A stretch of 57,482 nt of DNA from an uncultured virus (IMG/VR IMGVR_UViG_3300025840_000014). Its lineage: Duplodnaviria > Heunggongvirae > Uroviricota > Caudoviricetes. Position numbers and translations under genes: made by a program. The first letter of the stretch is position 1, and each line of letters starts with the position of its first letter. Where the stretch lies: the IMG/VR virus record IMGVR_UViG_3300025840_000014, one strand, 5' to 3'. The notes beneath the pieces were generated by a model. It did no database searches and had not been told where the DNA came from. It saw nothing but the letters and a program-made list of their open reading frames with translations. Below are positions 5,854 to 48,140 of the stretch, in pieces.

Positions 5854-5854
5854 C

Positions 5855-15612: not shown

Positions 15613-15617
15613 GCGTC

Positions 15618-17092: not shown

Positions 17093-17122
17093 TACCATGT
17101 AAAATATAGCCAGAGGTGCCCG

Positions 17123-17416: not shown

Positions 17417-17418
17417 AG

Positions 17419-18660: not shown

Positions 18661-18661
18661 G

Positions 18662-22210: not shown

Positions 22211-22218
22211 GGGTAATC

Positions 22219-22524
22219 ATGGCTGGCGCAGGCTTCAAAGAATTCCAATCAGAATCAGTCCTGACGGCGACACAAGTAAATACGTACTTGATGCAGCAGT
22301 CGGTCATGAATTTCAGTGACACTTCTGCCGCGTCGGCTCAGATCGTCGACGTTAACGGGTCGAGTCTGTTGTCTGAAGGCATGGTCGTCTATTCCCAGCA
22401 GGAAGAGCGTCTGTTTGTTCGCAATGGTTCTGGGTCATGGGATCGCGTGGGGACGAAAGACGAGATTGATGCTCAGGAGGCTCGTTCTGGCCAGATTCTG
22501 GTTTACATGGAAGTCATTAACTGA
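22219..22524 (+). CDS. Small virion / tail protein
   Basis: GFKEF..ESVLTATQVNTYLMQQ N-terminus is common in actinophage minor tail proteins. Confidence 0.55.
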   Translation: MAGAGFKEFQSESVLTATQVNTYLMQQSVMNFSDTSAASAQIVDVNGSSLLSEGMVVYSQQEERLFVRNGSGSWDRVGTKDEIDAQEARSGQILVYMEVIN

Positions 22525-22536
22525 TCGACTTCAGAC

Positions 22537-22545
22537 TGGTATAAT
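22537..22545 (+). promoter_or_regulatory. Extended -10 promoter TGGTATAAT
   Basis: Perfect TGn-TATAAT in the intergenic gap before the holin-like gene. Confidence 0.6.
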
Positions 22546-22582
22546 GTATAAGACGTAACCGACTCCTCCAAAGGGGATTCCT

Positions 22583-22798
22583 ATGAACGCCACTTTCATC
22601 AAAGATGCTGCCGAGCGCGCTGCCAAAACCTTCATTCAGGCCTATCTGGGTGTCTGGATGGCGACGGGCGCCGATTTTGACGGCCTCGCTTCCGGAGACA
22701 ACCTCAAGGCGGGTGTTGTCGCTGTTGCCCTTTCGATCGCCATGAGCATGGGCCTCAAGAACGTTGGCCCGAATAAGGGTTCTGCTTCCGCAGTCTGA
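22583..22798 (+). CDS. Holin-like protein (r1t family)
   Basis: DAAERAAKTFIQA motif, two hydrophobic segments, 71 aa. Confidence 0.7.
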   Translation: MNATFIKDAAERAAKTFIQAYLGVWMATGADFDGLASGDNLKAGVVAVALSIAMSMGLKNVGPNKGSASAV

Positions 22799-22870
22799 TT
22801 GGCAAATCTTTGCCCGGTTTAACCGGGTCTCTGATCTACAATTGAGTAGGTTTAGGGAGAAGAGGCGCCA

Positions 22871-23248
22871 ATGATCGCAGGCACTTACAACATTACATGC
22901 GAGCAGGGCGCGTCCTTTCTTCGCGTCATCAGGCTAAAAAGCCCTGATCCGACTGACCCCACGGGTGAAACCTACGTCGATTACGACCTAGAGAACTACA
23001 CGGCACGCCTACAGGTGCGTAGAACCGTGTCATCTGACTCGTTCCAGATCGAATTAACCACGGAAAATGGTGGGATTGTTCTGGAGAACGGCGGGCAAAA
23101 GGGTGAAATCCGTTTGATTATGACGGACGAACAGACGGCTGCCCTGACCAGCGACGGGGTTTATGACCTCGAAATCGAGTCAGCCGGCGGTTTCGTGAGC
23201 CGTGTCGTCGAAGGGACATTCACTCTGAAGTTGGAGGTGACGCGGTGA
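22871..23248 (+). CDS. Virion structural protein (Ig-like fibre adaptor)
   Basis: YNITCEQGASF...GVYDLEI...RVVEGTF..EVTR pattern, recurrent before phage fibre genes. Confidence 0.6.
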   Translation: MIAGTYNITCEQGASFLRVIRLKSPDPTDPTGETYVDYDLENYTARLQVRRTVSSDSFQIELTTENGGIVLENGGQKGEIRLIMTDEQTAALTSDGVYDLEIESAGGFVSRVVEGTFTLKLEVTR

Positions 23249-25720: not shown

Positions 25721-28700
25721 ATGAGCGCAAATGTCGTAATTCAGTTCAGGCGAGGAACAGCGAGCGAGTGGTCGACCGCTAACCCCACCCTTGCCGCTGG
25801 CGAACTCGCGATCGAGACAGATACCAACAAACTTAAGGTTGGTGACGGAAGCACGGCTTACAACAGTCTTACCTACGTCTCGACACTTGAGGCAGGCGTT
25901 CTTGGGGATATCAGCAACGTCACCCTCACCAGCGAAGCCGACGGCGATTTCCTTCGTTGGAACGGAACCGCGTGGATTAACGATGCGGTTAACCTCGGCA
26001 CCGACTCTGTCGGCGACTATGTCCAGAACCTTGTTGCGGGAACCGGTGTAACGCTTGCTGATAATACGGGAGAAGGTGCAACGCCAACCGTTTCAATTGG
26101 CCAAAGTGTTGACACTAGCGCCGACGTAACCTTTAACACCGTTTCAGCGAACCTGAGCGGCAATGTCACTGGCGATGTGACCGGTGATCTGACCGGCAAC
26201 GCGGACACGGCAACAAGCCTTGAAACCGCTCGCACAATTCAGGTTTCTGGTGATGTTGCCGGCTCTGCAACCTTTGACGGCACCGCAGACATCAACATCT
26301 CGACAACCGTTCAGCCCGACAGCGTCGCCCTCGGAACAGATACTACGGGTGATTACGTCGAAAGCATGTCTGCTGGAACTGGCGTCACCGTCACCGGTGG
26401 TACCGGTGAAGGCTCAACGCCCGTAATCGCCATTGCTCAGAGTGTTGCAACCACGGCAGATGTCACGTTCAACAGTGTTGAGACGACCGCTGACGTAATC
26501 ATTGGCGGAGATCTAACGGTCAACGGAACCACGACAACGATCAATACGGCAACCCTCGAAGTTGAAGACAACATCGTCACCCTCAATTCCAACGTCACTG
26601 GCGCCCCAAGCACCGACGCTGGTATCGAGATCGAACGGGGAACTTCAACAAACGTTTTGCTCCGCTGGAATGAAACAAGCGACATTTGGGAATTCACCAA
26701 CGACGGAACAACTTTCTACCCGCTGCCGACCGTCATTGACGATGTTTCTGACGTCAACGCCTCTGGTGCTTCAGATGGCGACATCCTCGTTTACGACGCG
26801 GCGAATTCCGTCTGGCAGCGAACCACTCCGGACCTGAGTCTTTCTACTGGCCGAAGCGATGTCACGATCACCTCGGCACAGGATGGCGACTATCTCCGTT
26901 GGAACGGCACTGCGTGGGTCAACGACCCAATCAACCTTGGAAGCGACACCGTTGGCGACTACGTCCAGAATCTGACTGCGGGAACAGGTGTCGCTCTGGT
27001 CGGGAACTCTGGCGAAGGAGCGACCCCGACAGTTTCTATCGGTCAGCCAGTTGGAACAGCAGATGACGTCCAGTTCGGCACCGTCACCGCCAACCTCACC
27101 GGTGACGTTACGGGCAATGCTGATACGGCCACAGCACTGGAAACTGCTCGCACGATCTCGCTCAGCGGTGATGTTGCTGGGTCTGTTTCCTTCGACGGAA
27201 CTGGTGACGTTGACATCACCGCAACGGTTCAGGCAAACAGCGTTGCACTTGGTTCCGACACGACCGGTGATTACGTTCAAAACCTTGTTGCTGGCAATGG
27301 AGTTACTATTACCAACAACTCTGGTGAGGGCGCAACCCCGACCATCACTCTCGACTCGACCGCTAACGCGACCTTCGAAGACCTGACCGTCAACGGTCTA
27401 CTTGATGCCTCACATATCCATGGCCAGTTGGCTGGTCCTGTCTATTTGCACGTCAAGAACACCAGCGGTTCAACGATCGCCAAGGGAACACCTGTCTACG
27501 CTACGGGTTCGGTTGGAGCGAGCGGCGCCACGGAAGTTGCTCCTTCTGATGCGGCAACAGCGGGAACGATGCCCGCACTGGGTATGACAACCGCAGAACT
27601 CGCGAACAATGGCGAGGGTCATGCCGTAATTCTTGGTGTCATCGACAACATGAACACCAACTCGTACACGGTTAACACGGTTCTGTATGTTGCCGATGGT
27701 GGAGGACTAACCTCGACACGCCCGACCGGTGAGGACGACAAGATTCAGGCTATTGGTCGCGTCATTCGACAGGACCAGTCCACGGGAGAAATCCTGATCC
27801 TTGGCGCGGGTCGCGCCAACGACACTCCAAACCACCTCGACACCGACTACATCGATTGGGATGTTTCGTCGTACACGCCTACGTCGAAGCCGACCCACGC
27901 GGAAAGCCGCGTTTGGTACGACTCAGCAAACGACGCTCTCCGCATGGACACCAGCCAGACCGGTGTCGATATTGCGCTCGGTCAGGAGCGCGCCCTGTAC
28001 GTATACAACAACTCAGGGGCCAGCATTCCCGCCGGGTCGGTTGTTTACTACACCGGGGAAAATTCTGCCATTCCAACCATCTCCCTCGCTGATGCGAGCG
28101 ATCCTGACAAAATCAACGTTGCCGGCGTAACCAAGGGGACCATCGCAAACGGCGCCCATGGTTTCATCATCATCGACGGAATTCTTCTCGGTATCGACCT
28201 CTCGTCGTACTCCGTTGGCGATCGACTCCACTTGTCGGCTGCAACTCCGGGTGGACTAACAACCAACCCGCCGACCTACCCGAACTACGCGGTCGAAATC
28301 GCAGAAGTCCTTCTCGCCTCGAACCCGGGCTGCTATCGGGTCAACATCGTTTCGGAAGTTTTCGACGATATCCGCGTTCGGGAAGATGCCCGAATTGACG
28401 GAAACCTGACTGTTGCTGGAAACCTCAGCATTCTCGGAACACAGTCAACCGTTTCGGTCAACAACCTTGCTGTCGATGACTCGTGGATCTACCTCAACGG
28501 CGGCAACACGATTGAGACCACCTCATTCTCTGGTTCGGGCCTCAACGACGGAACGCTTGTTGGTCACTTCACCGGAACATCCAGCACCACCTACTACGTC
28601 CGCATTGACAGCGTGGGCGGTGGAACTGGCGGCGTTGACACGTTCGAATGGTCAACCGACAACTTCTCGACAACCGAAGCAACTGGTGTCGACATCGGCA

Positions 28701-31627
28701 CCTCGCCAACTTCCTTGTCTGACGGTATCAGTATCGAATTTGTTGCCACGACCGGTCACACTTCCGGCGACACGTGGTCCGGCACCGCGTCTCCAGTCAA
28801 TATCGACTTGGGAATCGCCGGTAACTACAACGACGGTACCTACGCCCATACTGGTTTCTTCCGTGACACCACTGACGGCTACTGGAAGATTTTCGACGGT
28901 TACACCCCCGAGGTGGACGGCGACGTAAATACCGGTCATGCCTCGTTCAACCTTGCCGACATGCAAGCCGCCAACTTCCGTGGAGATCTCGTTGGCAACG
29001 CCGACACTGCGACTGCTCTCGAAACCGGACGCACGATCTCGATCAGTGGCGATGTTGCTGGATCGGTCACCTTCGACGGTACCGCTAACGTTGATATCGC
29101 GGCGACCATCCAAGCCAACTCGGTCGCTCTTGGCACAGACACAACTGGCGATTATGTGCAAAATCTTGTCGCCGGCACCGGTGTCACGCTGTCGTCCACT
29201 ACTGGGGAAAGCGACACGCCAACCGTTTCCATCGGTCAGGCAGTTGCAACATCTGACGATGTCACCTTCAACACGGTGACTCTTGGAACCGCCCCCACCC
29301 AAGACAGTCATGCGGTCACAAAGTCGTACGTTGACAACATTGCGTCTGGCATTGATTGGCATGAAGCAGCCGATCTAGGTACTGCCGCAGCCCTGCCAAA
29401 CAGCCCGACCTACAGCAATGGAACATCTGGGGTTGGGGCAACCCTCACTGCCGGCTCACAAGCCCGCCTCGTTGTTGATGGCACGAACGCAACTGCGGGA
29501 GATCGTATTCTCGTCAAGAATCAGGCGACCGCCTACGAAAACGGCATTTACGTTGTCACCACACAAGGCGCTTCCGGCGTGGCGGCGTGGGTTCTTACGC
29601 GAGTTGCCGACTTTGACGGCGGCGATACGGGCGAGGTTGTTCCCGGTGAAGCCGTTCTTGTCCTTGGTGGGGCAACGAATGCTCGTCAGGGTTTTGTTGT
29701 CACATCGACTTCTGATCCTCACACCATCGGCACGGACGCGATTACGTTCACCCAGTTCACTGGAACCCAAGCATTCACGGCAGGCGCCGGTCTCACTCAG
29801 ACTGGCAACACGCTCAATATCGAAACTGCCGACACGGGCCGCATTGTCGTCAATGCTGACACCATCGATCTCGGATCTGTCGCCGTTGGCAGCACAACGG
29901 GATCGAATACGTCTGATTTTGTTTCGTCAATCACAACCGACGCATACGGTCGCGTAACTTCTGTTGAAACGTCGAATGTCGGCCAGTCCCTGATCACGAC
30001 TGCCGATGTTACTTTCAACACGGTCGCTGCCGACCTGACGGGTGACGTTACCGGCAACGCCGATACGGCTTCCGCTCTCGCCACGGCTCGAACGATTCAG
30101 ATTTCTGGCGATGTTGCTGGCACGGCGACGTTTGATGGTTCCGCAGATATCAACATTTCGACGACCATTCAGGCCGATTCGATTGCGCTGGGCACGGACA
30201 CCACTGGCGATTACGTGCAGTCACTCGTTGCGGGAACTGGCGTAACTCTTGCCGACAATACTGGCGAGACCGCGACCCCGACGATCTCTATTGGTCAGTC
30301 TGTCGCTACAACCGACAACGTTACGTTTGCTGACGCAACGCTTGATTCGATCAAACTGACTACCGGTGGAACCGATGCCGTTATCGATTGGGTTACGGAT
30401 TCTGTCCGCTTGTCCAACGATGGGACCAACTACTACCAGATTTTGACGGTCAACGATACGTTCGGTGATCTTTCCGACGTCGACATGTCATCCCTCGCTC
30501 CGTCAACTGGCGACATCGCGTACTTCGACGGATCCAACTGGGTTCCGTATCCGTTGACCATTCAGAACGCAGGGAACGTTTCTACGTCAAGTGAGGCGTC
30601 CGGCGACATCCTGCTCTACAACGGAACGGACTACGCGAACACCCCGCACACGGTTGCGAACATCACGGATGTCTCGATTACCGCTGCTGCGTCCGGCGAC
30701 ATTTTGCTGCACAACGGCACAGACTGGGTCGACACAGAGCACACCCTTGGGAATATCACCAACGTCACCTTGACTTCTGAGACGGACGGCGAGTTCCTGA
30801 AGTACAACGGCACCGCTTGGGTTAATGCCTCCATCCCGGAGATCAACACCCTCAACGATGTCGGCAACGTGACAATCACGTCGGTTGCTTCAGGCGAATT
30901 CCTCAAGTGGGACGGCTCTGCGTGGGTCAACGCGTCAATCCCTGAAATCAATACGTTGAACGATGTTGGCAACGTCACAATTACGAGTGCCACATCGGGT
31001 GAGGTTCTTCAGTGGGACGGCACGGCATGGATCAACACGGATCTTCTTGCGAGCCCATCGCTTACCGGCACGCCGACCGCTCCTACTGCGGCGACGACGA
31101 CGAATACAACTCAGGTTGCTACGACGGCGTTTGTCCAGCAGGAAATCGCTGCTCTGGTCGACTCGGCACCCGGAACCCTTGACACGTTGAACGAGTTGGC
31201 CGCTGCTCTCGGCGACGACGCCAACTTCTCGACGACAGTCACTAACTCGCTTGCGCTGAAGGCGCCACTGGCTTCACCGACGTTCACGGGAACGGTGACC
31301 CTGCCGTCTGGCACGAACGTTACCGCTGGCATCGTGTCGTCTACTGGTAACAGGACGTTGGCACTCACCGATGCTGCTGATGTTGTGATGATGAACTCAA
31401 CCTCGGCCCTGACAGTTACCGTGCCAACAAATGCTGCGGTTCCATTCCCGGTGGGTACGAGCATCACGATCGTTCGCCAAAACACTGGCGATGTCACGGT
31501 TTCGCAGTCGTCAGGAGTCACAGTAAATGCTGCCGTGGGTAAAAAAGCCCGCGCCCGTTACTCTGCTATAGTTTTGACCAAGTACGCAACCGACACATGG
31601 CTGTTGACGGGTGACCAGAAGGCGTGA
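25721..31627 (+). CDS. Long modular tail fibre (1968 aa) with Mtd/hyaluronidase-type N-terminal domain
   Basis: IQFRRGTASEW..ANPTLAAGELAIETDT..LKVGDG. Six LG(T/S)D-x2-GDYV...AG(T/N)G modules, many G-D/E-x-L-x-W/Y-x-G-x2-W repeats, TLDTLNELAAALGDDANF. Confidence 0.88.
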   Translation: MSANVVIQFRRGTASEWSTANPTLAAGELAIETDTNKLKVGDGSTAYNSLTYVSTLEAGVLGDISNVTLTSEADGDFLRWNGTAWINDAVNLGTDSVGDYVQNLVAGTGVTLADNTGEGATPTVSIGQSVDTSADVTFNTVSANLSGNVTGDVTGDLTGNADTATSLETARTIQVSGDVAGSATFDGTADINISTTVQPDSVALGTDTTGDYVESMSAGTGVTVTGGTGEGSTPVIAIAQSVATTADVTFNSVETTADVIIGGDLTVNGTTTTINTATLEVEDNIVTLNSNVTGAPSTDAGIEIERGTSTNVLLRWNETSDIWEFTNDGTTFYPLPTVIDDVSDVNASGASDGDILVYDAANSVWQRTTPDLSLSTGRSDVTITSAQDGDYLRWNGTAWVNDPINLGSDTVGDYVQNLTAGTGVALVGNSGEGATPTVSIGQPVGTADDVQFGTVTANLTGDVTGNADTATALETARTISLSGDVAGSVSFDGTGDVDITATVQANSVALGSDTTGDYVQNLVAGNGVTITNNSGEGATPTITLDSTANATFEDLTVNGLLDASHIHGQLAGPVYLHVKNTSGSTIAKGTPVYATGSVGASGATEVAPSDAATAGTMPALGMTTAELANNGEGHAVILGVIDNMNTNSYTVNTVLYVADGGGLTSTRPTGEDDKIQAIGRVIRQDQSTGEILILGAGRANDTPNHLDTDYIDWDVSSYTPTSKPTHAESRVWYDSANDALRMDTSQTGVDIALGQERALYVYNNSGASIPAGSVVYYTGENSAIPTISLADASDPDKINVAGVTKGTIANGAHGFIIIDGILLGIDLSSYSVGDRLHLSAATPGGLTTNPPTYPNYAVEIAEVLLASNPGCYRVNIVSEVFDDIRVREDARIDGNLTVAGNLSILGTQSTVSVNNLAVDDSWIYLNGGNTIETTSFSGSGLNDGTLVGHFTGTSSTTYYVRIDSVGGGTGGVDTFEWSTDNFSTTEATGVDIGTSPTSLSDGISIEFVATTGHTSGDTWSGTASPVNIDLGIAGNYNDGTYAHTGFFRDTTDGYWKIFDGYTPEVDGDVNTGHASFNLADMQAANFRGDLVGNADTATALETGRTISISGDVAGSVTFDGTANVDIAATIQANSVALGTDTTGDYVQNLVAGTGVTLSSTTGESDTPTVSIGQAVATSDDVTFNTVTLGTAPTQDSHAVTKSYVDNIASGIDWHEAADLGTAAALPNSPTYSNGTSGVGATLTAGSQARLVVDGTNATAGDRILVKNQATAYENGIYVVTTQGASGVAAWVLTRVADFDGGDTGEVVPGEAVLVLGGATNARQGFVVTSTSDPHTIGTDAITFTQFTGTQAFTAGAGLTQTGNTLNIETADTGRIVVNADTIDLGSVAVGSTTGSNTSDFVSSITTDAYGRVTSVETSNVGQSLITTADVTFNTVAADLTGDVTGNADTASALATARTIQISGDVAGTATFDGSADINISTTIQADSIALGTDTTGDYVQSLVAGTGVTLADNTGETATPTISIGQSVATTDNVTFADATLDSIKLTTGGTDAVIDWVTDSVRLSNDGTNYYQILTVNDTFGDLSDVDMSSLAPSTGDIAYFDGSNWVPYPLTIQNAGNVSTSSEASGDILLYNGTDYANTPHTVANITDVSITAAASGDILLHNGTDWVDTEHTLGNITNVTLTSETDGEFLKYNGTAWVNASIPEINTLNDVGNVTITSVASGEFLKWDGSAWVNASIPEINTLNDVGNVTITSATSGEVLQWDGTAWINTDLLASPSLTGTPTAPTAATTTNTTQVATTAFVQQEIAALVDSAPGTLDTLNELAAALGDDANFSTTVTNSLALKAPLASPTFTGTVTLPSGTNVTAGIVSSTGNRTLALTDAADVVMMNSTSALTVTVPTNAAVPFPVGTSITIVRQNTGDVTVSQSSGVTVNAAVGKKARARYSAIVLTKYATDTWLLTGDQKA

Positions 31628-31633
31628 TAATCG

Positions 31634-32263
31634 ATGATTAACAGGATAGGCGATCTTCCAAAAGGCGATTTCACGTTCACTGATAACAGCAGCGCCTCTG
31701 CTCAGCGAGATGCGGTTGCTGCCCTCGGTTTTACAAACGTTTCTTGGACAGCCAATACAGCGAATACGACGAACGCTGGCCTCGTTGGGTCCGCGCATCA
31801 GGTTGTTGTCGACGGTACCGCATATACTGCAACTACATCGTTCACTGGTCTCCATTATGCGACTTCGATCGAGTTCCGTGCTTTCGGCCCGTTTTTCCCG
31901 CCGCACTTCCCGCCCCACTTCCCGCCCCACTTCCCACCGTTTTTCCCGCCATTTTTCCCACCTCACTTCCCGCCGTTCTTCCCTCCGTTCTTCCCGCCTC
32001 ACTTCCCTCCGTTCTTCCCGCCGTTCTTCCCACCGCACTTCCCGCCGTTCTTCCCACCGTTCTTCCCACCTCACTTCCCTCCCTTCTTCCCACCGTGGTT
32101 CCCACCGCACTTCCCGCCGCACTTCCCACCACATTTCCCGCCGCACTTCCCACCATTCTTCCCGCCGCATTTCCCACCACACTTCCCGCCGCACTTCCCA
32201 CCATTCTTCCCACCGCACTTCCCGCCGCACTTCCCGCCGTTCTTCCCTCCCCGATTCAAGTAG
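31634..32263 (+). CDS. Repeat protein: 86-aa N-terminal domain + 30 x (H/F/W)FPP; candidate substrate/precursor
   Basis: Starts 6 nt after the fibre stop. Pro codons vary synonymously while the peptide period stays perfect. Confidence 0.85.
   Translation: MINRIGDLPKGDFTFTDNSSASAQRDAVAALGFTNVSWTANTANTTNAGLVGSAHQVVVDGTAYTATTSFTGLHYATSIEFRAFGPFFPPHFPPHFPPHFPPFFPPFFPPHFPPFFPPFFPPHFPPFFPPFFPPHFPPFFPPFFPPHFPPFFPPWFPPHFPPHFPPHFPPHFPPFFPPHFPPHFPPHFPPFFPPHFPPHFPPFFPPRFK
31892..32251 (+). repeat. Coding 12-bp-period tandem repeat (16 HFPP, 13 FFPP, 1 WFPP)
   Basis: Direct count from the translation; unit (CAC/CAT/TTC/TTT/TGG)-TTC-CCN-CCN. Confidence 0.95.
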
Positions 32264-32275
32264 GGGAGGGAGACG

Positions 32276-32551
32276 GTGCCCCCATTGGTAAAAAAGTATT
32301 GGGGGCCGGTCGAGATTGATAAAGGCAGTCGAAGAACTGGCGCGATCGGTTGGGCTTTGCTAGTCATATACATAGTGTGTTATGACGTATACGCGATTAG
32401 AACCAAGCACGTCGAAACGTTGACTCGTGCCTACTGGCGTGGGTCTGCCAGCCGACGCGGCTCTCTTCTCGTTCATCTGCTTTGGGGTATCGCCACCTTC
32501 CATCTTGTTGCTGAGCATCGAGTAAGAAAAGCGATTTACAAGCGACTCTAA
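32276..32551 (+). CDS. Small membrane protein (2 predicted TM segments)
   Basis: GGAGG RBS, GTG start; hydrophobic GWALLVIYIVCY and LLVHLLWGIATFHLV. Confidence 0.6.
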   Translation: MPPLVKKYWGPVEIDKGSRRTGAIGWALLVIYIVCYDVYAIRTKHVETLTRAYWRGSASRRGSLLVHLLWGIATFHLVAEHRVRKAIYKRL

Positions 32552-32573: not shown

Positions 32574-33203
32574 ATGGAGGAGCCCGAGAAATCTCTTATC
32601 GAGCCGGGCCATTTCGGAACAGGCGTAGAAAACATCGTCATCATTGAAGACTTTGTCGAGCCCGACGATCTGGCGAAAATTCAAGCCTTCTTCCCGACTA
32701 TCAACGAATGGGAAAACCCGAAGGCTGATGAGTACAACGAAGACGGCACTTGCATTTATGACGCCTCGTATTGGTGGGATCGCATGTGCAGCGGTGAAAT
32801 TTTGAAACGAATTGGTCCAGAGATATATGATCTTGTGGATAAATACGTTTACAAAATGCAAGACGTTCTTGAACAAAAGTTCAACGTCCAGTTGTATTCA
32901 CGCTCGCCAGTTCTTATTCGATGGTTGCCGGGGAACGAGCAGCAACCACACGCAGACAAGCAACTCAACGATGGTACGCCAAACCCGTTCCCGACATACG
33001 ACATCAATTCGATCATTTACTGGAATGACGAATTCGAAGGCGGCCAGTTTTATTATCCGGAATTTGATATCGAACTTGATATCAAACCGGGCCTTGCGGT
33101 TGCTCACCCGGGCGACGTACACTACCTGCACGGCGTAAAGCAGATCATTTCTGGTGAGCGCTGGACAACACCATCCTTTTACACAATTACCGACCTGAAC
33201 TGA
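32574..33203 (+). CDS. 2OG-Fe(II) oxygenase, prolyl-4-hydroxylase-like
   Basis: HAD...YWNDEFEGG...HGV...RWT: intact HxD...H triad and 2OG-binding R-x-T. Confidence 0.9.
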   Translation: MEEPEKSLIEPGHFGTGVENIVIIEDFVEPDDLAKIQAFFPTINEWENPKADEYNEDGTCIYDASYWWDRMCSGEILKRIGPEIYDLVDKYVYKMQDVLEQKFNVQLYSRSPVLIRWLPGNEQQPHADKQLNDGTPNPFPTYDINSIIYWNDEFEGGQFYYPEFDIELDIKPGLAVAHPGDVHYLHGVKQIISGERWTTPSFYTITDLN

Positions 33204-33209: not shown

Positions 33210-33917
33210 ATGCGAGTTGCTGGAACTCTCGGCACATCAACTGACGGAATCATCCTGTACAAGGACGTGTGGCCCAAGGACTCTGATTTTGTCGGACGCC
33301 TCGAACGAGGCCTTGAAGGAAGCGCCACCGACTACTTCACATGGAAGCAGGCAATGGTCGGTGACAACGAGATCATGAAGGATTACCGTGACTGCTTCGA
33401 TTTCAAGTTGCGGCAGGGCGACATGCCAGTTCCCGACGAGTTCTCAGATCTCGGCAAGGTTTACGAAGAGGTGATTGCCGGTGTACGTGCGTGCGTAAAG
33501 CACTATTCGTCGCTTTTCAATCTTTCGCTCGACTACGAGGAAGCAACCAACTTCGTAAAATATGGTCCGGGCCAACACTTCTCGGTCCACCCCGACTCTG
33601 GATTCTCCTACTCGTGTGCGGTGTCCGCCATCGGCTACATCAACGACGATTACGAAGGCGGCGAATACATGATGCCGTACAAAAATCTCAAGTTCAAGCC
33701 AGAATTCGGTGACGTCATCGTTCATCCGAGTGACTTCATCTACGCTCACGCGTCACTCCCTGTTTCGTCCGGAACTAAATACTCCGCTGTGACGATGTAC
33801 GACTACAACGATCGCAACCACCAAGAGCACGGCGGCTCGGGAGGTTACGCATCAGCGGGAATGCCCGGACTCGGGCTACCTGATGCGAACTCGCAAGTCA
33901 CCATGCTTGGCGCGTGA
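33210..33917 (+). CDS. 2OG-Fe(II) oxygenase, prolyl-4-hydroxylase-like
   Basis: KYGPGQHFSVHPD...YINDDYEGG...HASLPV..GTKYS. Confidence 0.9.
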   Translation: MRVAGTLGTSTDGIILYKDVWPKDSDFVGRLERGLEGSATDYFTWKQAMVGDNEIMKDYRDCFDFKLRQGDMPVPDEFSDLGKVYEEVIAGVRACVKHYSSLFNLSLDYEEATNFVKYGPGQHFSVHPDSGFSYSCAVSAIGYINDDYEGGEYMMPYKNLKFKPEFGDVIVHPSDFIYAHASLPVSSGTKYSAVTMYDYNDRNHQEHGGSGGYASAGMPGLGLPDANSQVTMLGA

Positions 33918-33918: not shown

Positions 33919-34647
33919 ATGGAAGTTACGCTCACCCGAAGCCATCAGAATCCTCCAGAAATTCGACAGGCGTCCGTGCGTCGAGACTGGATGGATGAAA
34001 CATACAAGAAGCACGCGTACAAGTGCCTTCCGTTGACTGAGGCCAACGTCAATGGCTGGGAAGTTCTTCTGCAGCACGACGTTGTCGTCCAGTATGACGG
34101 GGGCCCAACTGTTCCGCGAATTCTGGAAGGCCATACCAAGACGTTCGAGATTGACGGGCACTCATACGAACGCGACATCGTCATGCCGAGCATCGTCGGC
34201 ATTATGTCGTTTTGTGTCGGCTGGAAGTTCGCGACACCTCCGGGAGTCGCAACATGGATTACCGGATCCCCCAACTATTTCGTTGATGGTGCCGTACCCC
34301 TGACTGGACATATTCCTTCGGATTGGTGGCCTGATGAGTTCAACATGAACTGGAAGATCACCAAAATCGGCGAGCCTGTAGTGTTCCCAGCGGGAATGCC
34401 TTTCATGTTTTTCCAGTTCTATGACACAAGTCTCATGCCTAGTGTCGAGTTCAATGTGAACAACATGTGGGATGATGACCAAAAGGAATTAAACGACGCC
34501 CGTATGAGATACAGCGTCGCTAAAAGAGAAAAATTGGTCAACGAACCATGGACATGGATGGGTGGGATCCGTACCGGTTTGGACGAAGAAGGAAACCGTA
34601 TCGGTCCTGAATTTTCAGGACACCCAAAACTAAAGGAGCCATCATGA
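33919..34647 (+). CDS. DUF6065-like protein
   Basis: RRDWMD...HAYKCLPL..AN..GW, F.TPPG...GSPN...PLTG...DWWP..F.MNWK motifs recalled for this family. ATG 33919. Confidence 0.65.
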   Translation: MEVTLTRSHQNPPEIRQASVRRDWMDETYKKHAYKCLPLTEANVNGWEVLLQHDVVVQYDGGPTVPRILEGHTKTFEIDGHSYERDIVMPSIVGIMSFCVGWKFATPPGVATWITGSPNYFVDGAVPLTGHIPSDWWPDEFNMNWKITKIGEPVVFPAGMPFMFFQFYDTSLMPSVEFNVNNMWDDDQKELNDARMRYSVAKREKLVNEPWTWMGGIRTGLDEEGNRIGPEFSGHPKLKEPS

Positions 34648-36218
34648 AAGGCGTCGGCGGGATCGCAGTCGGTCTTCGACTAGGAAACCTCGGATTCAAA
34701 ATCAAGGGCGTAACCGCTCAACAGGTGCTCGCTGAACCCGAGTACTTCAAGGAAATCTTGAAGAAGAACAAGATGATTGGTTTCATCGGGATGCACCCGA
34801 CCAACGAGGAACATGCCGCGCTGGTTCACGCCCTTTACGACGGCGAGTACAAACCTGACGAGCATGACCATGGCTACTACCAGCGTGGCCTTCTCAAAGA
34901 TCAGTGGCACGAAACAATCAAAGACGTTGAAAACAAAGAAGACCCAGAGTGGTTTCTTCGTTGCAACTGGCATGTCGACAACCCGTTTTTCGACGAACCA
35001 CCTAGCCTCATTTCTATCCACATGACGACTTACAATGTGGAACAAGGTTACGGCAATACTTTCTGGGTCAGCCTGCGGAATCTTTTCGACGAGTGCCCTG
35101 CCGAATTGCGGGAGCATTTGAAAACGGCCCGATTCCGTGGTGAGACTGGCAGCGAAGAGCACGATGTCAAATCTCATCCTGCTCTCCGCACGCACCCGGA
35201 TACTGGCGAAACAATGCTGTATTGGACCGGGCCGGGGACCATTCTCGAAGGCGAAGAAACGCCTTGGTTCCAAGACCTTCGTAAATATGTAGAGGACTAC
35301 TGCGCCGAGCCACGGAACCGCTACCAGTGGGATTGGGAAGTTGGCGATGTTGTCATTTGGGATAACCGCGCCGTGATGCATGGTTTCTATCCCGGCTGGG
35401 AACGCAAAGACCGCATCTTCCAGCGAGTCGAAGCGGGTACCGACCAGCCGTTCTATGACCCCGAATATCGTGCTGAAATCAACGAAAACTTCGGTGATGT
35501 TCTTGCCGATGAGGATCATCAACGAGACACCAGCATGGGGCCGAACCCGGACCACATCCCTCTCGTTTTCACCAAAGGTTTTTACGCTCTTGAGGGTCTA
35601 GAGGAGTACTACCAAAAGGTGGTTATGTTCACCATCGAAGACGAAGATGGGAACGCTCGCTCGCTATTGCAGGAACTTGAAAATCAAGTAGACGACGACG
35701 AGTTCTTTATCTACCGGGTTCCGCACGATGAGAACAACAGGATTTTCGCAAACCTGAAGCGTTATCGGGATCACATCATGCCCGATTACCCGATGGCTGG
35801 CTGCTCCTTTGTCTGCAACAGGAATGGTGACTTTCACCTGTTCCTCGAACCGGACAGGAATCTGCTGGAAAACGACAACCCTGATCCACTTAGGTGCATC
35901 CCGAACCAGATCCGTGGTTTCCTTGAGTGGCACCCAGATATGCGACACGCGGGCCATGCTTGGCACTACCCGGATTGGTTCCCGCATCAGCCTCTGCAGT
36001 ACAGGCCGTGGAGTTACCACAACTGCTCGTTTATGCAGTATTACAAGTCGGACGGCAATCATCCTCCGGAAGACTTCGTGGTTCAATTCGCGATCGACTC
36101 GCTGTACGGCTGCTTCAACGGGCTGAAAGACAACGAGGATCGTCTTCGTGTAATCTCTCGGGTACACGATTACATCGGATACATGCTCGAACTTAATGAG
36201 CACGAAAACGACAGGTAG
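34644..36218 (+). CDS. TauD/TfdA-family dioxygenase fused to an unknown C-terminal domain
   Basis: WHVD, G.GNT.W, HPALRTHPDTGE, W..GDVVIWDNRAVMH...R; about 250 extra C-terminal residues. Confidence 0.85.
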   Translation: MKGVGGIAVGLRLGNLGFKIKGVTAQQVLAEPEYFKEILKKNKMIGFIGMHPTNEEHAALVHALYDGEYKPDEHDHGYYQRGLLKDQWHETIKDVENKEDPEWFLRCNWHVDNPFFDEPPSLISIHMTTYNVEQGYGNTFWVSLRNLFDECPAELREHLKTARFRGETGSEEHDVKSHPALRTHPDTGETMLYWTGPGTILEGEETPWFQDLRKYVEDYCAEPRNRYQWDWEVGDVVIWDNRAVMHGFYPGWERKDRIFQRVEAGTDQPFYDPEYRAEINENFGDVLADEDHQRDTSMGPNPDHIPLVFTKGFYALEGLEEYYQKVVMFTIEDEDGNARSLLQELENQVDDDEFFIYRVPHDENNRIFANLKRYRDHIMPDYPMAGCSFVCNRNGDFHLFLEPDRNLLENDNPDPLRCIPNQIRGFLEWHPDMRHAGHAWHYPDWFPHQPLQYRPWSYHNCSFMQYYKSDGNHPPEDFVVQFAIDSLYGCFNGLKDNEDRLRVISRVHDYIGYMLELNEHENDR

Positions 36219-36226
36219 GTAGAGAA

Positions 36227-37075
36227 ATGTCGGTCGACGAGACCCAAACCGAAGCACCGCCAAAAGGGGTTCACCTAGGCGGCGGCATCGTTATGTACGA
36301 AAACGCTTTCGATCTCGACTGGGATTGGATGCGAGAATTTTGCCAAAACACTCTGCGTGAGGAACGTGAGACTTCGTACACTCCGGGGGTCGACCCGATT
36401 ACAGGACAAGAGGGCTACATCAACCGGAGCAAGTTTTTCTTCGAAAAAGACACTTTGGATGAGATGCCTTGGCGGGGAAGTTTGGTCCACCAAAACCCTG
36501 ACCCCAAAGTGATCGAAACTCTCGATTACATCGAGTCGCGCCGAGATCTGTGTCTCCTTGATTACCTCAATCAGTTCCCCATGGCAGGGAAAACCATTTG
36601 GTGGAAGATTCGTGGACACATTGTCGCTTACCCTAAAGGCGCGTTTCTGGGCACGCACTCGGATGTGAGTACCGATTACGAGTACGGCAAGCCTCATCCT
36701 CGCGATCAGTTGGCCACACGCTCATCCGTGAGCGTTGTTGCTTACATCAACGACTGGGTCGAAACAGAGGACGAACTTGACGGAACAAACTTCACGGGTG
36801 GCGAACACAGTTTTGCCTACTACGACATCAGCATCAAACCCAAGCGTGGGAATATGATCTTCTTTCCAGCCAACTACCTTGCTGCTCACGAAGTAAAGCC
36901 GGTTACTGGGGGATGGAGGTACTCCTACTTGGGTTGGTACTGTCAGGGTTCGCCAAATGGCCAGTATTTGGAAGCAGTTGCCGACCCCGTGACTGAACCA
37001 GAAACAGCAAAAATTGCCTCGAACGTCTACATGACGGAGGGGTACTCGATTCTTCCCCCGATTGGATTCAACTGA
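36227..37075 (+). CDS. 2OG-Fe(II) oxygenase
   Basis: LGTHSD...FTGGE...FFPANYLAAHEVKPVTGGWRYS. Confidence 0.88.
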   Translation: MSVDETQTEAPPKGVHLGGGIVMYENAFDLDWDWMREFCQNTLREERETSYTPGVDPITGQEGYINRSKFFFEKDTLDEMPWRGSLVHQNPDPKVIETLDYIESRRDLCLLDYLNQFPMAGKTIWWKIRGHIVAYPKGAFLGTHSDVSTDYEYGKPHPRDQLATRSSVSVVAYINDWVETEDELDGTNFTGGEHSFAYYDISIKPKRGNMIFFPANYLAAHEVKPVTGGWRYSYLGWYCQGSPNGQYLEAVADPVTEPETAKIASNVYMTEGYSILPPIGFN

Positions 37076-37076
37076 A

Positions 37077-37667
37077 ATGATTGAAGCAAAAACCACTATT
37101 GGCATCTGTTCTGTTGGTCGCATGGGCGCAACGCTCGCCTACAGTTTGAAAGATCAAGGCCACCGCCTTGTCACCTTCGCCGCTGACCGCTCTGATGAAA
37201 CCAAGGCTCGCGCCGAAGAGCATGGTGTAGAACAACTCGATTCAATGGCCGAAGTTATGGAAACGTCCGACTACATCTTCGTGATCACCAACGGTGACGG
37301 TGCTGAAAACATTTGCAAAGAATTGACAAATGGGAAGTACCAAGGCTGCGTAATTGAATCGAACGGCCTATGGGGTTTGGAATCAGAGGAAGAATTCCGT
37401 GGTCGTTACATCGATGCTGGCGTTTCCTATGTGGATGCTTCGCTCTACGGGTGGCCCCACCCCGGACGTGATGGGTACACGAACGAACACACCATCTACC
37501 TTTCGGGCGAAAGGGCCAAGGAAGTCGCCGAACTGTTTGGCGACAGCGGCTACTGGAATATTGAAATCACCGATGAAGGCGATGAACCTGAGCACGCCAA
37601 GGCGTTCCGTCGATACCGCAACGATCGCGAGCGCGCAGAGAACGAGGCCCGAGGTCACCCTGTATGA
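37077..37667 (+). CDS. NAD(P)-binding dehydrogenase (6PGD / 3-hydroxyisobutyrate DH-like N-terminal domain)
   Basis: IGICSVGRMG..LA..L...GH, YVDASLYG.P, IYLSG. Confidence 0.65.
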   Translation: MIEAKTTIGICSVGRMGATLAYSLKDQGHRLVTFAADRSDETKARAEEHGVEQLDSMAEVMETSDYIFVITNGDGAENICKELTNGKYQGCVIESNGLWGLESEEEFRGRYIDAGVSYVDASLYGWPHPGRDGYTNEHTIYLSGERAKEVAELFGDSGYWNIEITDEGDEPEHAKAFRRYRNDRERAENEARGHPV

Positions 37668-38323
37668 AATCGATCCTTCATGGCTACGGGGTCATGGAGT
37701 TCCAAGATGTCGTCGAGATCGACCCAGATTTTTTTGATGGCTGGCTGGAACGCCGTAAGGCTAATGAGCCGAGCGACTATATTCTGCAGGATGACGGTAC
37801 CTACCTCAACCGAGGCGGTTACCGCTTTACCGCAGAACAGGTAAACGAATCTCCAAGCCGCATCTTGCGTCTTGAAGAAAACGCCTCACAGGAAGATATT
37901 GATTTTTATCAGTCCGTGTACAACGGAATGGGCGAATGCATCAAGGTTTACTGCCAGCACTTTCCAGAGGTTGAGCCATGCATCTGGTGGAGGGCTCATC
38001 CGCATGTCGCTACCTATGCCGTAACCGGAAACATGGGTTTCCATCATGACAACCTCATCGGTGACGGTAAAGAAAGCAATAACGCCATTTTTACTGTGCT
38101 GACAGGATCTTTGATTTTGAAAGATCGCTGCGAAGGCGGGAACCTACTGTTCAAGTATGCCGGACTAGATATTGCCCCCAAAGCGGGAAGTGCCTTTATC
38201 TACTCGGCAGGATATTTGGGCACCCATGCCGTAGAGCCTGTCACATCAGGCGAGCGTGTCTCGTACCTTGAATTCTTCGGGCACGGCCCGCAAGAAGGTT
38301 CAACAGAATTTGCTTGGCGTTAA
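37664..38323 (+). CDS. 2OG-Fe(II) oxygenase
   Basis: MGFHHDN...EGGNL.F...THAVEPVTSGERVS. Confidence 0.88.
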   Translation: MKSILHGYGVMEFQDVVEIDPDFFDGWLERRKANEPSDYILQDDGTYLNRGGYRFTAEQVNESPSRILRLEENASQEDIDFYQSVYNGMGECIKVYCQHFPEVEPCIWWRAHPHVATYAVTGNMGFHHDNLIGDGKESNNAIFTVLTGSLILKDRCEGGNLLFKYAGLDIAPKAGSAFIYSAGYLGTHAVEPVTSGERVSYLEFFGHGPQEGSTEFAWR

Positions 38324-39336
38324 CGCCTAACAGGGATCGGCCAAGTCTCTCCGTACTCAAGTTTCTCGCCAGTCGGAGGACCCTCAGTTGAGCGCTCCTG
38401 ATTGTGGACAGTTGCGGCGTCAAGTCCGACAGCCCGACTGTTCTCGCTTGAGAAATGTGAATATTCGGACTGCATGAACCGCGCGGTGTCCTGATACAAG
38501 AACGGCATCCACACTGGACACAGCCAGTCGACGCTCTCGTTCGGCTCTTTCACTTCGTACTTGTGAAGACCACCGTGGCCGTACTGAGCCAAATAGGTGT
38601 AACGCTCGCCGGAAGTAACTGGGGCAACCCCATGGGTTCCCATGTAGTTCGCCGGGAAGAAAATCATGTCGCCACGCTTCGGCTTGACACTAATGTCGAG
38701 ATACGGGAAGTGCATCTCTCCGCCCTCGTACTCCTCGTTGAGATACACCAAACAGTTGGTCACCTGATACATCGCAATCTCGCGGCCAGACAGGTGGCGC
38801 TGCCCATCGATGATCAGCGAGTTGGTGTCGTTGTCGTTGTGAATCCCAAGTGATGCTCCGGGCAGGTACTTGAGGCAATGGCCTCGGGCTCTCCACCACA
38901 ACTGGTTCACGACGAGCGGGTACAGGTCGACGTATCGACAGAGCGCGAAGTACATCGTCTCTTCGAAATTTTCGAAAATCTCTCGAATGTTCTCTGGCGT
39001 TGTGGGATTGACCGGCTCTGGCATTCCCATTCCGCCGACCCGCATCGGGAGGGCTAGGAGGTCGTCCATTGAGACGATTTTCCCGTCGAAGGTTTCGCCA
39101 TGGAGCATGTTGCCTTCGTCATCTTTGATGATTTCCAGACCGCATGAAGGAACGTACGACATCATGTCGATGTAGGGCAGCAAAACGTCCGAGTCGAAAT
39201 CAACTGCTCCGTGGAAATGCACGACACCACCGGGGTGATTCGTGTATTCGAGATCGGCGATCAGTTTGAAATCGCTGTCAGTCAACTTGTGGTAGGCGTG
39301 CTTGATGTTGTCTTCGGGTCCGTATAGCCGAGCCAT
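38320..39336 (-). CDS. 2OG-Fe(II) oxygenase (paralogue of 36227 and 37664 genes)
   Basis: LGIHND...YLNEEYEGGE...FFPANYMGTHGVAPVTSGERYT. Confidence 0.9.
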   Translation of the reverse strand: MARLYGPEDNIKHAYHKLTDSDFKLIADLEYTNHPGGVVHFHGAVDFDSDVLLPYIDMMSYVPSCGLEIIKDDEGNMLHGETFDGKIVSMDDLLALPMRVGGMGMPEPVNPTTPENIREIFENFEETMYFALCRYVDLYPLVVNQLWWRARGHCLKYLPGASLGIHNDNDTNSLIIDGQRHLSGREIAMYQVTNCLVYLNEEYEGGEMHFPYLDISVKPKRGDMIFFPANYMGTHGVAPVTSGERYTYLAQYGHGGLHKYEVKEPNESVDWLCPVWMPFLYQDTARFMQSEYSHFSSENSRAVGLDAATVHNQERSTEGPPTGEKLEYGETWPIPVRR

Positions 39337-39345
39337 TTTCGTTCC

Positions 39346-40128
39346 TTAGTTTGTGGGTAGTTTGCGAGCGATAACCAATCCGTTTTGGAAGGCCACATGA
39401 CGAGAATACACGTTTTCTTTGCTCGCAATGTAACGGCTCTGGTCTGCCCAAAACGATTGATGAACCGTGAGGTCATCGAGATACATTCCGGTTCCATGCG
39501 CCATGCCGCGACCCATGAAAAGACCACCGGGTTTTAGGCAGTCAAACAATTTGTCAATGATTGTTTCGGTGCAGTTGACGAACTGGTGTACGCCGAGGCG
39601 AATGACGTCGAACATCTCGCCGAGCGATCCGTCCATGATTTCCTGATACGTGACCTGACCGTAAACAAGGTCTTCGTAATCCGGATAGTCGGCAGACGTC
39701 TCAAGCGTTTTTTCGAAAATTCTTGCTTCTACCTCGTTGAGGATGTACGTCTGCACATTTCCTGTTCGGAGGTTGACATCGATTGGCCAGAACGGGGGGA
39801 GCCCAGAGGTCAACTCGACAATCGGCTCGTCTTTGACGTATGAAAAATCCTGATACATCTCGACAAAGGTTGTGGTCATCGCGCCCATCGCCCATGCTGA
39901 TTCGATCCATTCGGGCGCCATGCCGACGTAGGAGCGGTGCCGGTAGAAGTAGTGGTCATCTCCCGTGGCGATCTCTCGGCTGTCAACGGCAGCGAGATCG
40001 TTCAGGTTTGATCCGACTGTCCCATAATCGGACATGATCCCAACTTTGGAATCCCATTCTTCACCGGTCTGCCCGTTGGAAAGGTAACGTGCTACTCGGT
40101 TTCTTGCGATCGAAGGATTAATACTCAT
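39346..40128 (-). CDS. Methyltransferase-fold-like protein
   Basis: FDVI...LFDCLKPGGLF resembles class I SAM-methyltransferase motifs; motif I (GxG) is not clear. Confidence 0.5.
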   Translation of the reverse strand: MSINPSIARNRVARYLSNGQTGEEWDSKVGIMSDYGTVGSNLNDLAAVDSREIATGDDHYFYRHRSYVGMAPEWIESAWAMGAMTTTFVEMYQDFSYVKDEPIVELTSGLPPFWPIDVNLRTGNVQTYILNEVEARIFEKTLETSADYPDYEDLVYGQVTYQEIMDGSLGEMFDVIRLGVHQFVNCTETIIDKLFDCLKPGGLFMGRGMAHGTGMYLDDLTVHQSFWADQSRYIASKENVYSRHVAFQNGLVIARKLPTN

Positions 40129-40453
40129 TTTCGCTCAACCATTTCGCTAGGTGCAGTTCACGCCAGTGGCGGCGAGCCACATTAGTGAGTTTGTTTTGCT
40201 GTTTACGGATGAACGCCTGAGATCCGATGTAATACCGGTTTTTGCCCTCGATGGCATCTTCGGTCAGCATCGACTCGCCATAATCAAAAACGTCCAGAAT
40301 TCCTGCGATGATCTCGTCGATGGTTACCGTGTCGATGTTTGCTGGGTCGAGCCCGGCAATCATCATTGCGACTGCGACCTCACCTTCGATCCATTCGATA
40401 TTTGCGGCGTTGTCATAGAGAGGCTTGGCGTCAGTCGAGGTGTGCTTAGGCAT
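40118..40453 (-). CDS. Hypothetical protein (paralogue of 47129..47416)
   Basis: Overlaps both neighbours; MPK start, GLDPANIDTVTIDE, ends AKWLSENEY. Confidence 0.7.
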   Translation of the reverse strand: MPKHTSTDAKPLYDNAANIEWIEGEVAVAMMIAGLDPANIDTVTIDEIIAGILDVFDYGESMLTEDAIEGKNRYYIGSQAFIRKQQNKLTNVARRHWRELHLAKWLSENEY

Positions 40454-40673
40454 TGCTGGCTTCTTCCTCTAAGGGGTCGAAAAGAGTGGTTCCGCAAATA
40501 AACGCTTCACCTGTTCCCGGTCGCACTGCCGCTCCAGCCTCTGAAGACCAGAAAAAAACTTCTGTGCTGTCTTCCTCTTGGCCCTTTGGGGTCGTGTACA
40601 GGCCGTGTTGAGCGAGGCGGTCTTCCCATTTGATTGGGCGAGAGCGGCGAAGTGATTCGCTGCTGAAGTTCAT
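40446..40673 (-). CDS. Small hypothetical protein
   Basis: Translationally coupled to its neighbours; acidic end LFDPLEEEASNA. Confidence 0.6.
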   Translation of the reverse strand: MNFSSESLRRSRPIKWEDRLAQHGLYTTPKGQEEDSTEVFFWSSEAGAAVRPGTGEAFICGTTLFDPLEEEASNA

Positions 40674-40888
40674 GACGCAGCAGGGATCGCGCTCAACGCC
40701 TCCAGTTGTTTCTGCAGTGACAGGTACTGGTCGTACTGCGGATGACCTTCGGCGACAGGGATAGTGTAAGGATGGTCTACTGAAGCAGGGTCAACACCCA
40801 GAAGCAGGCACAGAACGTAAATTGAATATTCGAGAAATGCTCTCGCTTCAGATTCCGCTTGCGCTTGACGTGATGCGCTTAGTGCCAT
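40670..40888 (-). CDS. Small helical G(I/V)DP-family protein
   Basis: GGAG RBS; LLLGVDPASVD. Confidence 0.7.
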   Translation of the reverse strand: MALSASRQAQAESEARAFLEYSIYVLCLLLGVDPASVDHPYTIPVAEGHPQYDQYLSLQKQLEALSAIPAAS

Positions 40889-40906
40889 GTTGGGTCTCCA
40901 CTTCTA

Positions 40907-41122
40907 TCAGAGCGTCTGAACCCAGTCTAGCCGATCAAGCCAAGTGCGGAGTTCATCCTGCCCGAGCGAGCCGTCAGATGTGAACGTGGCCGAGTCGAGG
41001 TCGGCAGGGTCGATGCCTTCCTGCCACGAGCAGCGGAAAACGTTCTCTTCAATGATGCGAAGCGCCTCAGACTTGGCTGTGGCTTTCTCGTCTGAGTGGA
41101 AAAGATCAGAAAAAATCATCAT
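40907..41122 (-). CDS. Small helical G(I/V)DP-family protein
   Basis: WQEGIDPADLD; overlap with the upstream gene. Confidence 0.7.
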   Translation of the reverse strand: MMIFSDLFHSDEKATAKSEALRIIEENVFRCSWQEGIDPADLDSATFTSDGSLGQDELRTWLDRLDWVQTL

Positions 41123-41337
41123 GCACCAGCCTTCAGGTCAGCGAGTTCGCCGAGCAAACGCGACAGTTCGGCGTGGTAGGTGTCCGAACCTTCGGGAGCG
41201 GTGTAGGAATCACCGAGATCGGCGGGGTCGATCCCGCAGACAACGGCGTAAGTCCAGACGTGCTGCTCTTTGCCGGCGATGATAAGCGTTTTTGCCGAAT
41301 TCTTGTATTCGTCAGAAATGTTGTTCAAGGCAACCAT
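41119..41337 (-). CDS. Small helical G(I/V)DP-family protein
   Basis: Likely start ATG at 41337 after GGGGG; VVCGIDPADLG. Confidence 0.7.
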   Translation of the reverse strand: MVALNNISDEYKNSAKTLIIAGKEQHVWTYAVVCGIDPADLGDSYTAPEGSDTYHAELSRLLGELADLKAGA

Positions 41338-41373
41338 GTGTAAACCCCCGTAGGAAACGGTGTGTGCCTTGTA

Positions 41374-41382
41374 AGTATACCA
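41374..41382 (-). promoter_or_regulatory. Extended -10 promoter TGGTATACT driving the minus-strand operon
   Basis: Reverse complement of AGTATACCA in the divergent intergenic gap. Confidence 0.55.
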
Positions 41383-41425
41383 GTCACGTTCATCGGCTAG
41401 AACGAACATCATGTAAGATAATGGC

Positions 41426-42088: not shown

Positions 42089-42090
42089 AA

Positions 42091-43050: not shown

Positions 43051-43204
43051 CATGCCATTCGACACCAAAGCCGTGATTGAGGACCTTTCCGAGCAGGTCA
43101 AACAGTTGTCGTTGAATAACACGATTCTTCGATCGATGGTTCAGACTGCTCAGCGTCAGATCCAAGAACTACAGGAGCAAATGGCGGAACCGCCGGCCGA
43201 GTGA
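43043..43204 (+). CDS. Small coiled-coil protein, 53 aa (not in ORF track)
   Basis: MSDMPFDTKAVIEDLSEQVKQLSLNNTILRSMVQTAQRQIQELQEQMAEPPAE fills the gap exactly. Confidence 0.65.
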   Translation: MSDMPFDTKAVIEDLSEQVKQLSLNNTILRSMVQTAQRQIQELQEQMAEPPAE

Positions 43205-43205
43205 C

Positions 43206-44790: not shown

Positions 44791-44793
44791 GCC

Positions 44794-48122: not shown

Positions 48123-48140
48123 AGTAGTAGTGTTCAAGTC

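Follow-up and report, generated by a model that had tools for sequence, protein, structure and literature searches.

An aromatic-Phe-Pro-Pro repeat gene of a freshwater phage lies behind a tail fibre gene and is linked to two prolyl-hydroxylase-like genes that may modify its product

Gene arrangement around the repeat gene

The window, by which we mean the whole stretch of 57,482 nucleotides that was analysed, covers the structural half of a phage record of 119,482 bases, with sheath, baseplate and fibre genes. It was found, whole or in part, in 23 runs of freshwater metagenomes. The phage genome carries a WhiB gene, which points to an actinobacterial host. The repeat gene (31634-32263, + strand) is an open reading frame of 209 amino acids. 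It consists of an 86-residue head with a predicted divergent PASTA fold (31634-31891, +), an array of 30 units of (His/Phe/Trp)-Phe-Pro-Pro (residues 87-206; 31892-32251, +) and a short C-terminal end, Arg-Phe-Lys-stop (32252-32263, +).

Six bases upstream of the repeat gene is the stop codon of a tail fibre gene (25721-31627, +) encoding 1968 amino acids, with an Mtd_N domain at the N-terminus (PF18454, E = 1.4e-17). The conserved C-terminal domain of the fibre (31325-31627, +) matches PHROG 8780, a minor tail protein (E = 7.3e-21), while a sequence search of the PDB with this domain gave nothing significant. Downstream of the repeat gene are a small protein assigned by family match to DUF7427 (32276-32551, +), two 2OG-Fe(II) oxygenase genes, OX0 (32574-33203, +) and OX1 (33210-33917, +), and a DUF6065 gene (33919-34647, +). 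These are followed by a variable island of tailoring enzymes of approximately 14 kb (34644-48995), recognized by family matches to two TauD proteins, five further 2OG-Fe(II) oxygenases, a Rossmann dehydrogenase-like and a glutathione peroxidase-like protein, a tryptophan halogenase and a second phrog_7084 protein. The last of these (48141-48995) matches PHROG 7084 as does the DUF6065 gene.

Several other genes of the same phage have unusual compositions. At the far border of the enzyme island, a 611-residue protein (50149-51984, +) has collagen-like Gly-X-Y arms flanking a long His/Asn/Pro/Tyr-rich middle with recurring G-H-N-P, and might be considered a second candidate substrate. Small acidic proteins of similar appearance are scattered in the island (40118-41484, -; 47129-47416; 52010-52291), and similar small ORFs also occur downstream of the repeat in relatives. 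A protein of 678 residues (52288-54324, +), which includes a run of eight prolines and in which a long mucin-like stretch is rich in Thr and Pro, adjoins an endolysin-like gene. Beyond the window, a second group of tailoring-type genes (L313; G000:C1, about 13000-23000) lies near WhiB and a primase-helicase, and includes a cytochrome P450, a carbamoyltransferase and another three 2OG-Fe(II) oxygenases.

Composition of the array and evidence for selection

Translation of the ORF gave 16 HFPP, 13 FFPP and one WFPP unit (TGG at 32096) and the terminal RFK, exactly as counted in an earlier note on this DNA. No second xFPP run was present anywhere in the 119,482-base genome. The same note had stated that the Pro codons use all four CCN triplets, which holds for the second Pro of the unit but not for the first, where only CCG, CCA and CCT occur. 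There are 18 distinct 12-mers among the 30, and exact internal repeats reach 29 nt at most; the silent sites have drifted, and the array is therefore old enough for this. The first-position residues follow the order FHHHFF-HFF-HFF-HFF-HF-W-HHHHFHHHFHHF. A block of (HFPP-FFPP-FFPP) x3-4 had been described as the opening of the array, ahead of His-rich units; the HFF block exists, but it comes later, and the array opens with F-HHH-FF. Agreement of the H/F order at lag 3 was 0.67 (p = 0.018 against shuffles, for one of four lags tested), a weak period-3 His rhythm. Since a 36-nt duplication suffices to produce this signal, the H/F order was not retained as a design rule.

The array was compared with other assemblies and sequencing runs. 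Two IMG/VR assemblies (L122 and L123) are identical to the repeat gene in all 627 coding bases and a third, cut at the 5' side (L125), has the same 30 units, all of them possibly from the same lake. In four other DNA runs, contigs connect the unique flank with the array at both ends. All six strain differences listed within the array in other DNA runs were at third positions of Pro codons (three of the six come from a single short contig and are possibly placed on the wrong units), and one further difference, in the codon directly before the array, was also at the third position of a Pro codon. The contig end L203 showed three synonymous changes and one Trp-to-Cys change in the array. Strain changes in the array are almost all synonymous, and the repeat is under protein-level selection. 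This had been proposed before, against a fresh DNA microsatellite, and both the synonymous variation and the aromatic first position conserved across the family agree with it. Although all 30 units encode their fixed Phe by TTC and no single listed Logan contig spans the array, the identical independent assemblies, the synonymous variation and the conserved family leave a microsatellite or an assembly artefact with a negligible probability; the ties of both array ends to unique flank likewise speak against an artefact. Broken reading frames, which had been suggested as a further check, do exist in homologues. They are located in the head, and none was noticed inside the arrays, which were not searched systematically. 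Parts of the fibre gene, of the repeat gene and of the enzyme genes are covered by contigs from four metatranscriptomes (for X15, positions 31420-31888 and 32157-32407); as they carry neither strand nor level, these contigs are not evidence of expression.

Distribution of the repeat family

A protein search returned 136 relatives of the repeat protein, of which 120 were listed. They have the repeat in common, while the head varies (PASTA, FN3 or Ig) and so does the tail (none, Cys-rich, Hint, S74 chaperone or more Ig). Heads are up to 1200 residues long, and the repeat is sometimes internal, between Ig/FN3 domains. In some relatives (P0045, P0090, L005, L054, L056 and L074 for the tails; L029, P0101 and P0106) the repeat is followed directly by a terminal Hint domain or by a fibre chaperone of the S74 type, and self-cleavage there would release the repeat C-terminus.

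At the DNA level, a five-unit pattern was estimated to occur in approximately 850 IMG/VR stretches. A four-unit pattern searched in 185,579 GTDB genomes returned 37 rows, and reading of the frames left head-plus-repeat genes in four MAGs; all four carry the enzyme trio (OX0, OX1 and DUF6065) and were taken for binned phage contigs. Judged by these searches, the repeat protein belongs to a large phage family that is almost absent from cells. The INPHARED phages, searched by tblastn with the low-complexity filter on, gave no match to the repeat protein, and therefore no cultured member was found.

The comparison of repeat number and variable residue among homologues, advised in the earlier note, was made with 134 distinct arrays. 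They have 5-34 units each, so that the 30 units of the window are near the upper end. In 1856 units the first position was F in 1125, Y in 462, H in 239, W in 27 and another residue in three, which makes it F, Y, H or W in 1853 of 1856; some of the arrays had been retrieved by a pattern that accepted only F, Y, H or L in four of its positions, and the count is biased accordingly. Leu was never found at the first position even though the retrieval pattern permitted it. The ending x-Phe-Lys-stop is shared by 65 of the 134 arrays. His is present in 31 arrays, and elsewhere Tyr, Phe and Trp are found instead.

Predicted fold of the head

An AF2 model of the head, based on a four-row alignment of close relatives, had a pLDDT of 82, and two of the five models were confident. 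The top 15 of 27 fold matches were all PASTA-domain proteins. The best was the PASTA domain of PknB (Z = 7.4, rmsd 3.1, 71 residues aligned), a middling score since Z is below 8, and the first non-PASTA match had a Z of 3.4. The model places one helix against a small beta sheet, as in a PASTA domain. The head is thus predicted to adopt a PASTA fold, in agreement with the PASTA-like N-terminus suggested earlier.

At the sequence level this relationship was not visible. The head resembles the PASTA domains of PknB, PrkC, StkP and PBP2x (PF03793) in predicted fold, and the Pfam PASTA domain is present in many homologues of the repeat protein; however, the head has at most 14% identity to those domains, is not matched by the PF03793 profile, occurs as a single copy and is not attached to a kinase or PBP. 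Neither the repeat protein nor the head matched a Pfam family at E 0.01 or a PHROGs family. A PASTA-head profile built in this analysis gave the head 5.6 bits, while shuffled sequences reached 8.5, and the profile-profile comparison of the head with PASTA heads had a probability of 3.7%. No usable match to residues 1-88 was obtained in the ESM Atlas, no homologue in a head-only search and nothing significant in the PDB by sequence. A four-head profile run against 1.84 billion proteins gave six matches, one a true relative and the others low-complexity. Neither a signal peptide nor a membrane segment was apparent in the head by eye.

The enzyme trio and its linkage with the repeat

The best solved match of OX0 was prolyl 3-hydroxylase 1 (8k0e, E = 8.1e-9), followed by prolyl 4-hydroxylases (E = 1.7e-6), whereas the best solved matches of OX1 were prolyl 4-hydroxylases (3itq, E = 1.1e-7). 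PiuC and lysyl hydroxylase ranked below the prolyl hydroxylases. These PDB matches cover the catalytic core only (E from 1e-9 to 1e-6) and do not fix substrate or regiochemistry. Both proteins have the H-x-D...H iron triad and a basic residue for 2-oxoglutarate binding: H126-x-D128, H186 and R196 are invariant in 24 aligned OX0 sequences, and H127-x-D129, H180 and K190 in 22 aligned OX1 sequences. R196 of OX0 aligns with the Arg of P3H1. Lys at the co-substrate position is a mark of collagen-type P4H. In a close high-GC relative (L052, around 5300-5900, -), OX1 is seemingly split in two frames.

The DUF6065 protein has a predicted dUTPase fold and an invariant H-A-Y-x-C-x-P motif. Its listed Foldseek matches were all dUTPases, the best of them at E = 1.7e-4 and none above 13% identity, while comparison by sequence with solved dUTPases and the PDB gave nothing significant. 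Of the five catalytic motifs of trimeric dUTPases, the Asp motif seems by eye not to be kept.

The neighbourhood of the repeat was evaluated for 67 repeat loci that had flanking sequence. Among the first 80 loci, 14 did not enter this count, as their short, cut or split genes provided no anchor ORF, and 41 further loci had short flanks. An oxygenase of the main cluster was found in 54 of the 67, OX0 in 46, OX1 in 38 and DUF6065 in 41, nearly all of them downstream. The DUF7427 gene was present in three of these loci only and is outside the conserved unit. On the upstream side, the fibre C-terminal domain of about 90 residues ends the gene directly before 81 of 101 arrays, showing that the array is usually placed behind one fibre C-terminal domain.

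In the reverse direction, OX0 was found in about 2200 viral stretches and DUF6065 in about 1600. The repeat was present in 66 of 80 OX0 loci (the best 80 of 598 confirmed) and in 61 of 80 DUF6065 loci (the best 80 of 590 confirmed). These reciprocal loci are the top matches of profiles built from repeat-adjacent genes and include many sister strains, so their independence is overstated. When only loci with 8 kb on both sides were counted, the repeat was found in 12 of 12 for OX0 and 13 of 13 for DUF6065, and the linkage also held where OX0 was inverted. These results show a two-way linkage of the repeat with OX0, OX1 and DUF6065, although a similar pattern could arise from common descent of a block of tail-side genes. 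Ten repeat loci had no trio nearby. OX0 was located elsewhere on the contig in three of them and was absent from seven, which are fragments 18-60% complete; most of these loci have the repeat as a linker between domains of the FN3 or Ig type.

A candidate four-base step at CGG-N in low-GC relatives

Many PASTA-repeat genes of relatives are split near the 5' end, within the head, and a +1 step at CGG-N brings their two parts into one frame. Scanning of 160 low-GC loci detected 77 junctions as candidates. Thirty-seven were in repeat genes (35 CGGA, one CGGT and one CGGG; L001, L013, L033, L039, L050 at 6823-6826 (+), L058, L065, L072, L172, L184 and others). The other 40, some of them probably chance matches, included fibre genes (L049, L066, L158, L164 and L170) and oxygenase genes (L068 and L215). 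The 28 split-gene loci contained one CGG codon in 72,009, compared to 488 in 95,764 for 20 intact-gene loci, of which 301 come from the window's genome; some low-GC intact-gene loci are also without CGG. When 25 of 26 junctions picked as plausible were aligned to intact homologues, the commonest residue was Gly in 19 and Arg in two.

In one tRNA called as Gly the anticodon arm exceeds the usual length by two bases, and the loop contains UCCG, the complement of CGGA. This tRNA was found in three of five records searched, namely the three complete ones (206-268 kb), one of which has a second gene. One copy is at L331:1501-1573 (-), with others in L333, L343, L339 and L344-L366; a pattern for the enlarged-arm tRNA detected 23 viral stretches with four distinct sequences. 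Near this tRNA CGG is rare but present (19 of 30,037 codons). The window's genome gave no match to the tRNA, and the CGG-N step is absent from its phage. The enlarged-arm tRNA could read CGGA or CGGN, and we regard tRNA-driven four-base reading at CGG-N in the low-GC relatives as fairly probable, the competing explanation being slippage at an unassigned CGG codon. If true, a single Gly step at CGG-N, together with the tRNA that matches it, would be a case of natural four-base decoding. Our literature searches gave no paper on such a step.

Possible function of the repeat protein

The repeat recurs in hundreds of phage fragments with these two prolyl-hydroxylase-like genes as neighbours, which makes it a likely, though putative, target of the two enzymes. 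The reading that we prefer, tentatively and at slightly less than an even chance, is that of a fibre-associated rod whose Pro-Pro pairs would be hydroxylated by OX1 and OX0 in the manner of collagen. An extended rod is a reasonable inference from the array; it would be a polyproline-type chain with a stripe of aromatic side chains, assembled together with the fibre as a virion appendage. The combination of the repeat with FN3, Ig, S74 chaperone or Hint domains in relatives is typical of virion fibres. The P4H-like OX1 may hydroxylate the second Pro of each pair and the P3H-like OX0 the first, after OX1 as in collagen, and enzymes of the variable island might decorate the rod further. The PASTA head could bind the cell wall or dock on the fibre, and the rod would likely help the phage adhere to the envelope of an actinobacterial host, or provide shielding close to it. 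A stronger version, in which every Pro-Pro of a glycine-free aromatic virion rod becomes 3Hyp-4Hyp, DUF6065 takes part either as a third enzyme or as a trimeric partner, and the island adds halogen, sulfate or carbamoyl groups, to give a new class of surface polymer in freshwater actinobacteria phages, is doubtful. The earlier note had missed the upstream fibre and the downstream trio; its selection and PASTA-like head find support, its His pattern and cyclic peptides do not.

Three known systems can be compared with the locus. In the available part of PMC3634087, chlorovirus PBCV-1 is described as having a prolyl 4-hydroxylase together with Pro-Ala-Pro-Lys repeats that the enzyme can hydroxylate, and it resembles the present case in pairing a prolyl 4-hydroxylase-type enzyme with proline-rich repeats in a virus. 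Here, in contrast, the virus is a bacteriophage, the units are aromatic-Phe-Pro-Pro, and two distinct putative oxygenases and DUF6065 are linked to the candidate substrate gene. The tandem dioxygenase cluster of Synechococcus phage Syn9 is similar in its tryptophan halogenase and its many 2OG-Fe(II) oxygenases, and Iyer et al. 2010 (PMC2938197) noted in it a protein of dUTPase fold in which a Cys is conserved. In the accessible portion of that paper the cluster is read as a secondary-metabolite or small-molecule pathway with no protein substrate named, a co-encoded tail-collar/collagen-like, fibre-type protein is proposed as the oxygenase substrate in some bacterial operons, and the aromatic-Phe-Pro-Pro repeat is not mentioned.

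In collagen, Pro-4Hyp-Gly is converted to 3Hyp-4Hyp-Gly, 3-hydroxylation following 4-hydroxylation (PMC7619536, as far as its text was available), and a Pro-Pro repeat with a P4H-like and a P3H-like enzyme fits this order by analogy. However, the array has no Gly and a period of four rather than three, which does not allow a collagen triple helix, the enzyme kinship concerns the catalytic core only, and collagen P3H requires a following Gly, of which the array has none. The array itself as collagen was ruled out, there being no Gly-X-Y period. In the part available of the main text of a preprint on EF-P (10.1101/2024.04.15.589488), FPP, PPF and PPH are absent. We found no paper on the aromatic-Phe-Pro-Pro repeat or on DUF6065, with limited coverage of subscription papers.

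The rod may instead be an unmodified stalk, a stiff spacer or sticky aromatic surface, with the enzymes serving small molecules, nucleotides or other proteins and the linkage reflecting a shared tail-side block. The use of the repeat as an internal FN3/Ig linker in lineages with no trio nearby, the seven trio-less fragments lacking OX0, the dUTPase fold of DUF6065, typical of a nucleotide enzyme, and the secondary metabolites proposed for Syn9 in the part of Iyer et al. 2010 (PMC2938197) at hand are all in line with this. Since the two-way linkage holds through inversion and changes of head domain, and the nearest solved relatives of OX0 and OX1 are peptide prolyl hydroxylases, we consider an unmodified stalk rather unlikely, though a serious contender. 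A modified protein that the infected cell produces and then releases or displays on its surface, as a decoy or exclusion factor bound to the cell wall through its head, would make good use of the predicted PASTA fold; with no export signal apparent, and with gene position and domain fusions that indicate a tail module, such a role is improbable.

A multi-core RiPP precursor, in which the head would be a leader and the repeat would be cut into short or cyclic PPFF peptides, had been proposed in the earlier note with antamanide and cyclolinopeptide A, reportedly PPFF cyclic peptides, as possible parallels. The bank of tailoring enzymes downstream and the Cys-rich or Hint tail of some relatives would suit such a precursor. 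The units, however, are joined head to tail with neither spacers nor recognition sites to separate cores, the heads are folded PASTA/FN3 domains that can be very long, and the repeat can lie between Ig/FN3 domains. A scan covering 34 proteins of the window and 64 repeat or neighbouring proteins gave no protease or cyclase family; many of these proteins had no family, and DUF6065 has invariant Cys and His. A RiPP precursor is therefore very improbable. A His-spaced metal-binding polymer, suggested by the 16 His at four-residue spacing in the window's array, is still less credible given that Tyr, Phe and Trp substitute freely for His across the family, which also removes His as the point of the repeat.

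The banks of 2OG-Fe(II) oxygenases in aquatic phages are often counted as auxiliary metabolic genes with no substrate. With a fibre-associated, hydroxylated rod as the preferred reading, this locus supplies a candidate substrate and a two-enzyme reaction in three small genes. If this reading is true, it would provide small, stand-alone prolyl 3- and 4-hydroxylases for protein engineering, and many phage oxygenase genes would serve to build the virion surface and not to rewire host metabolism.
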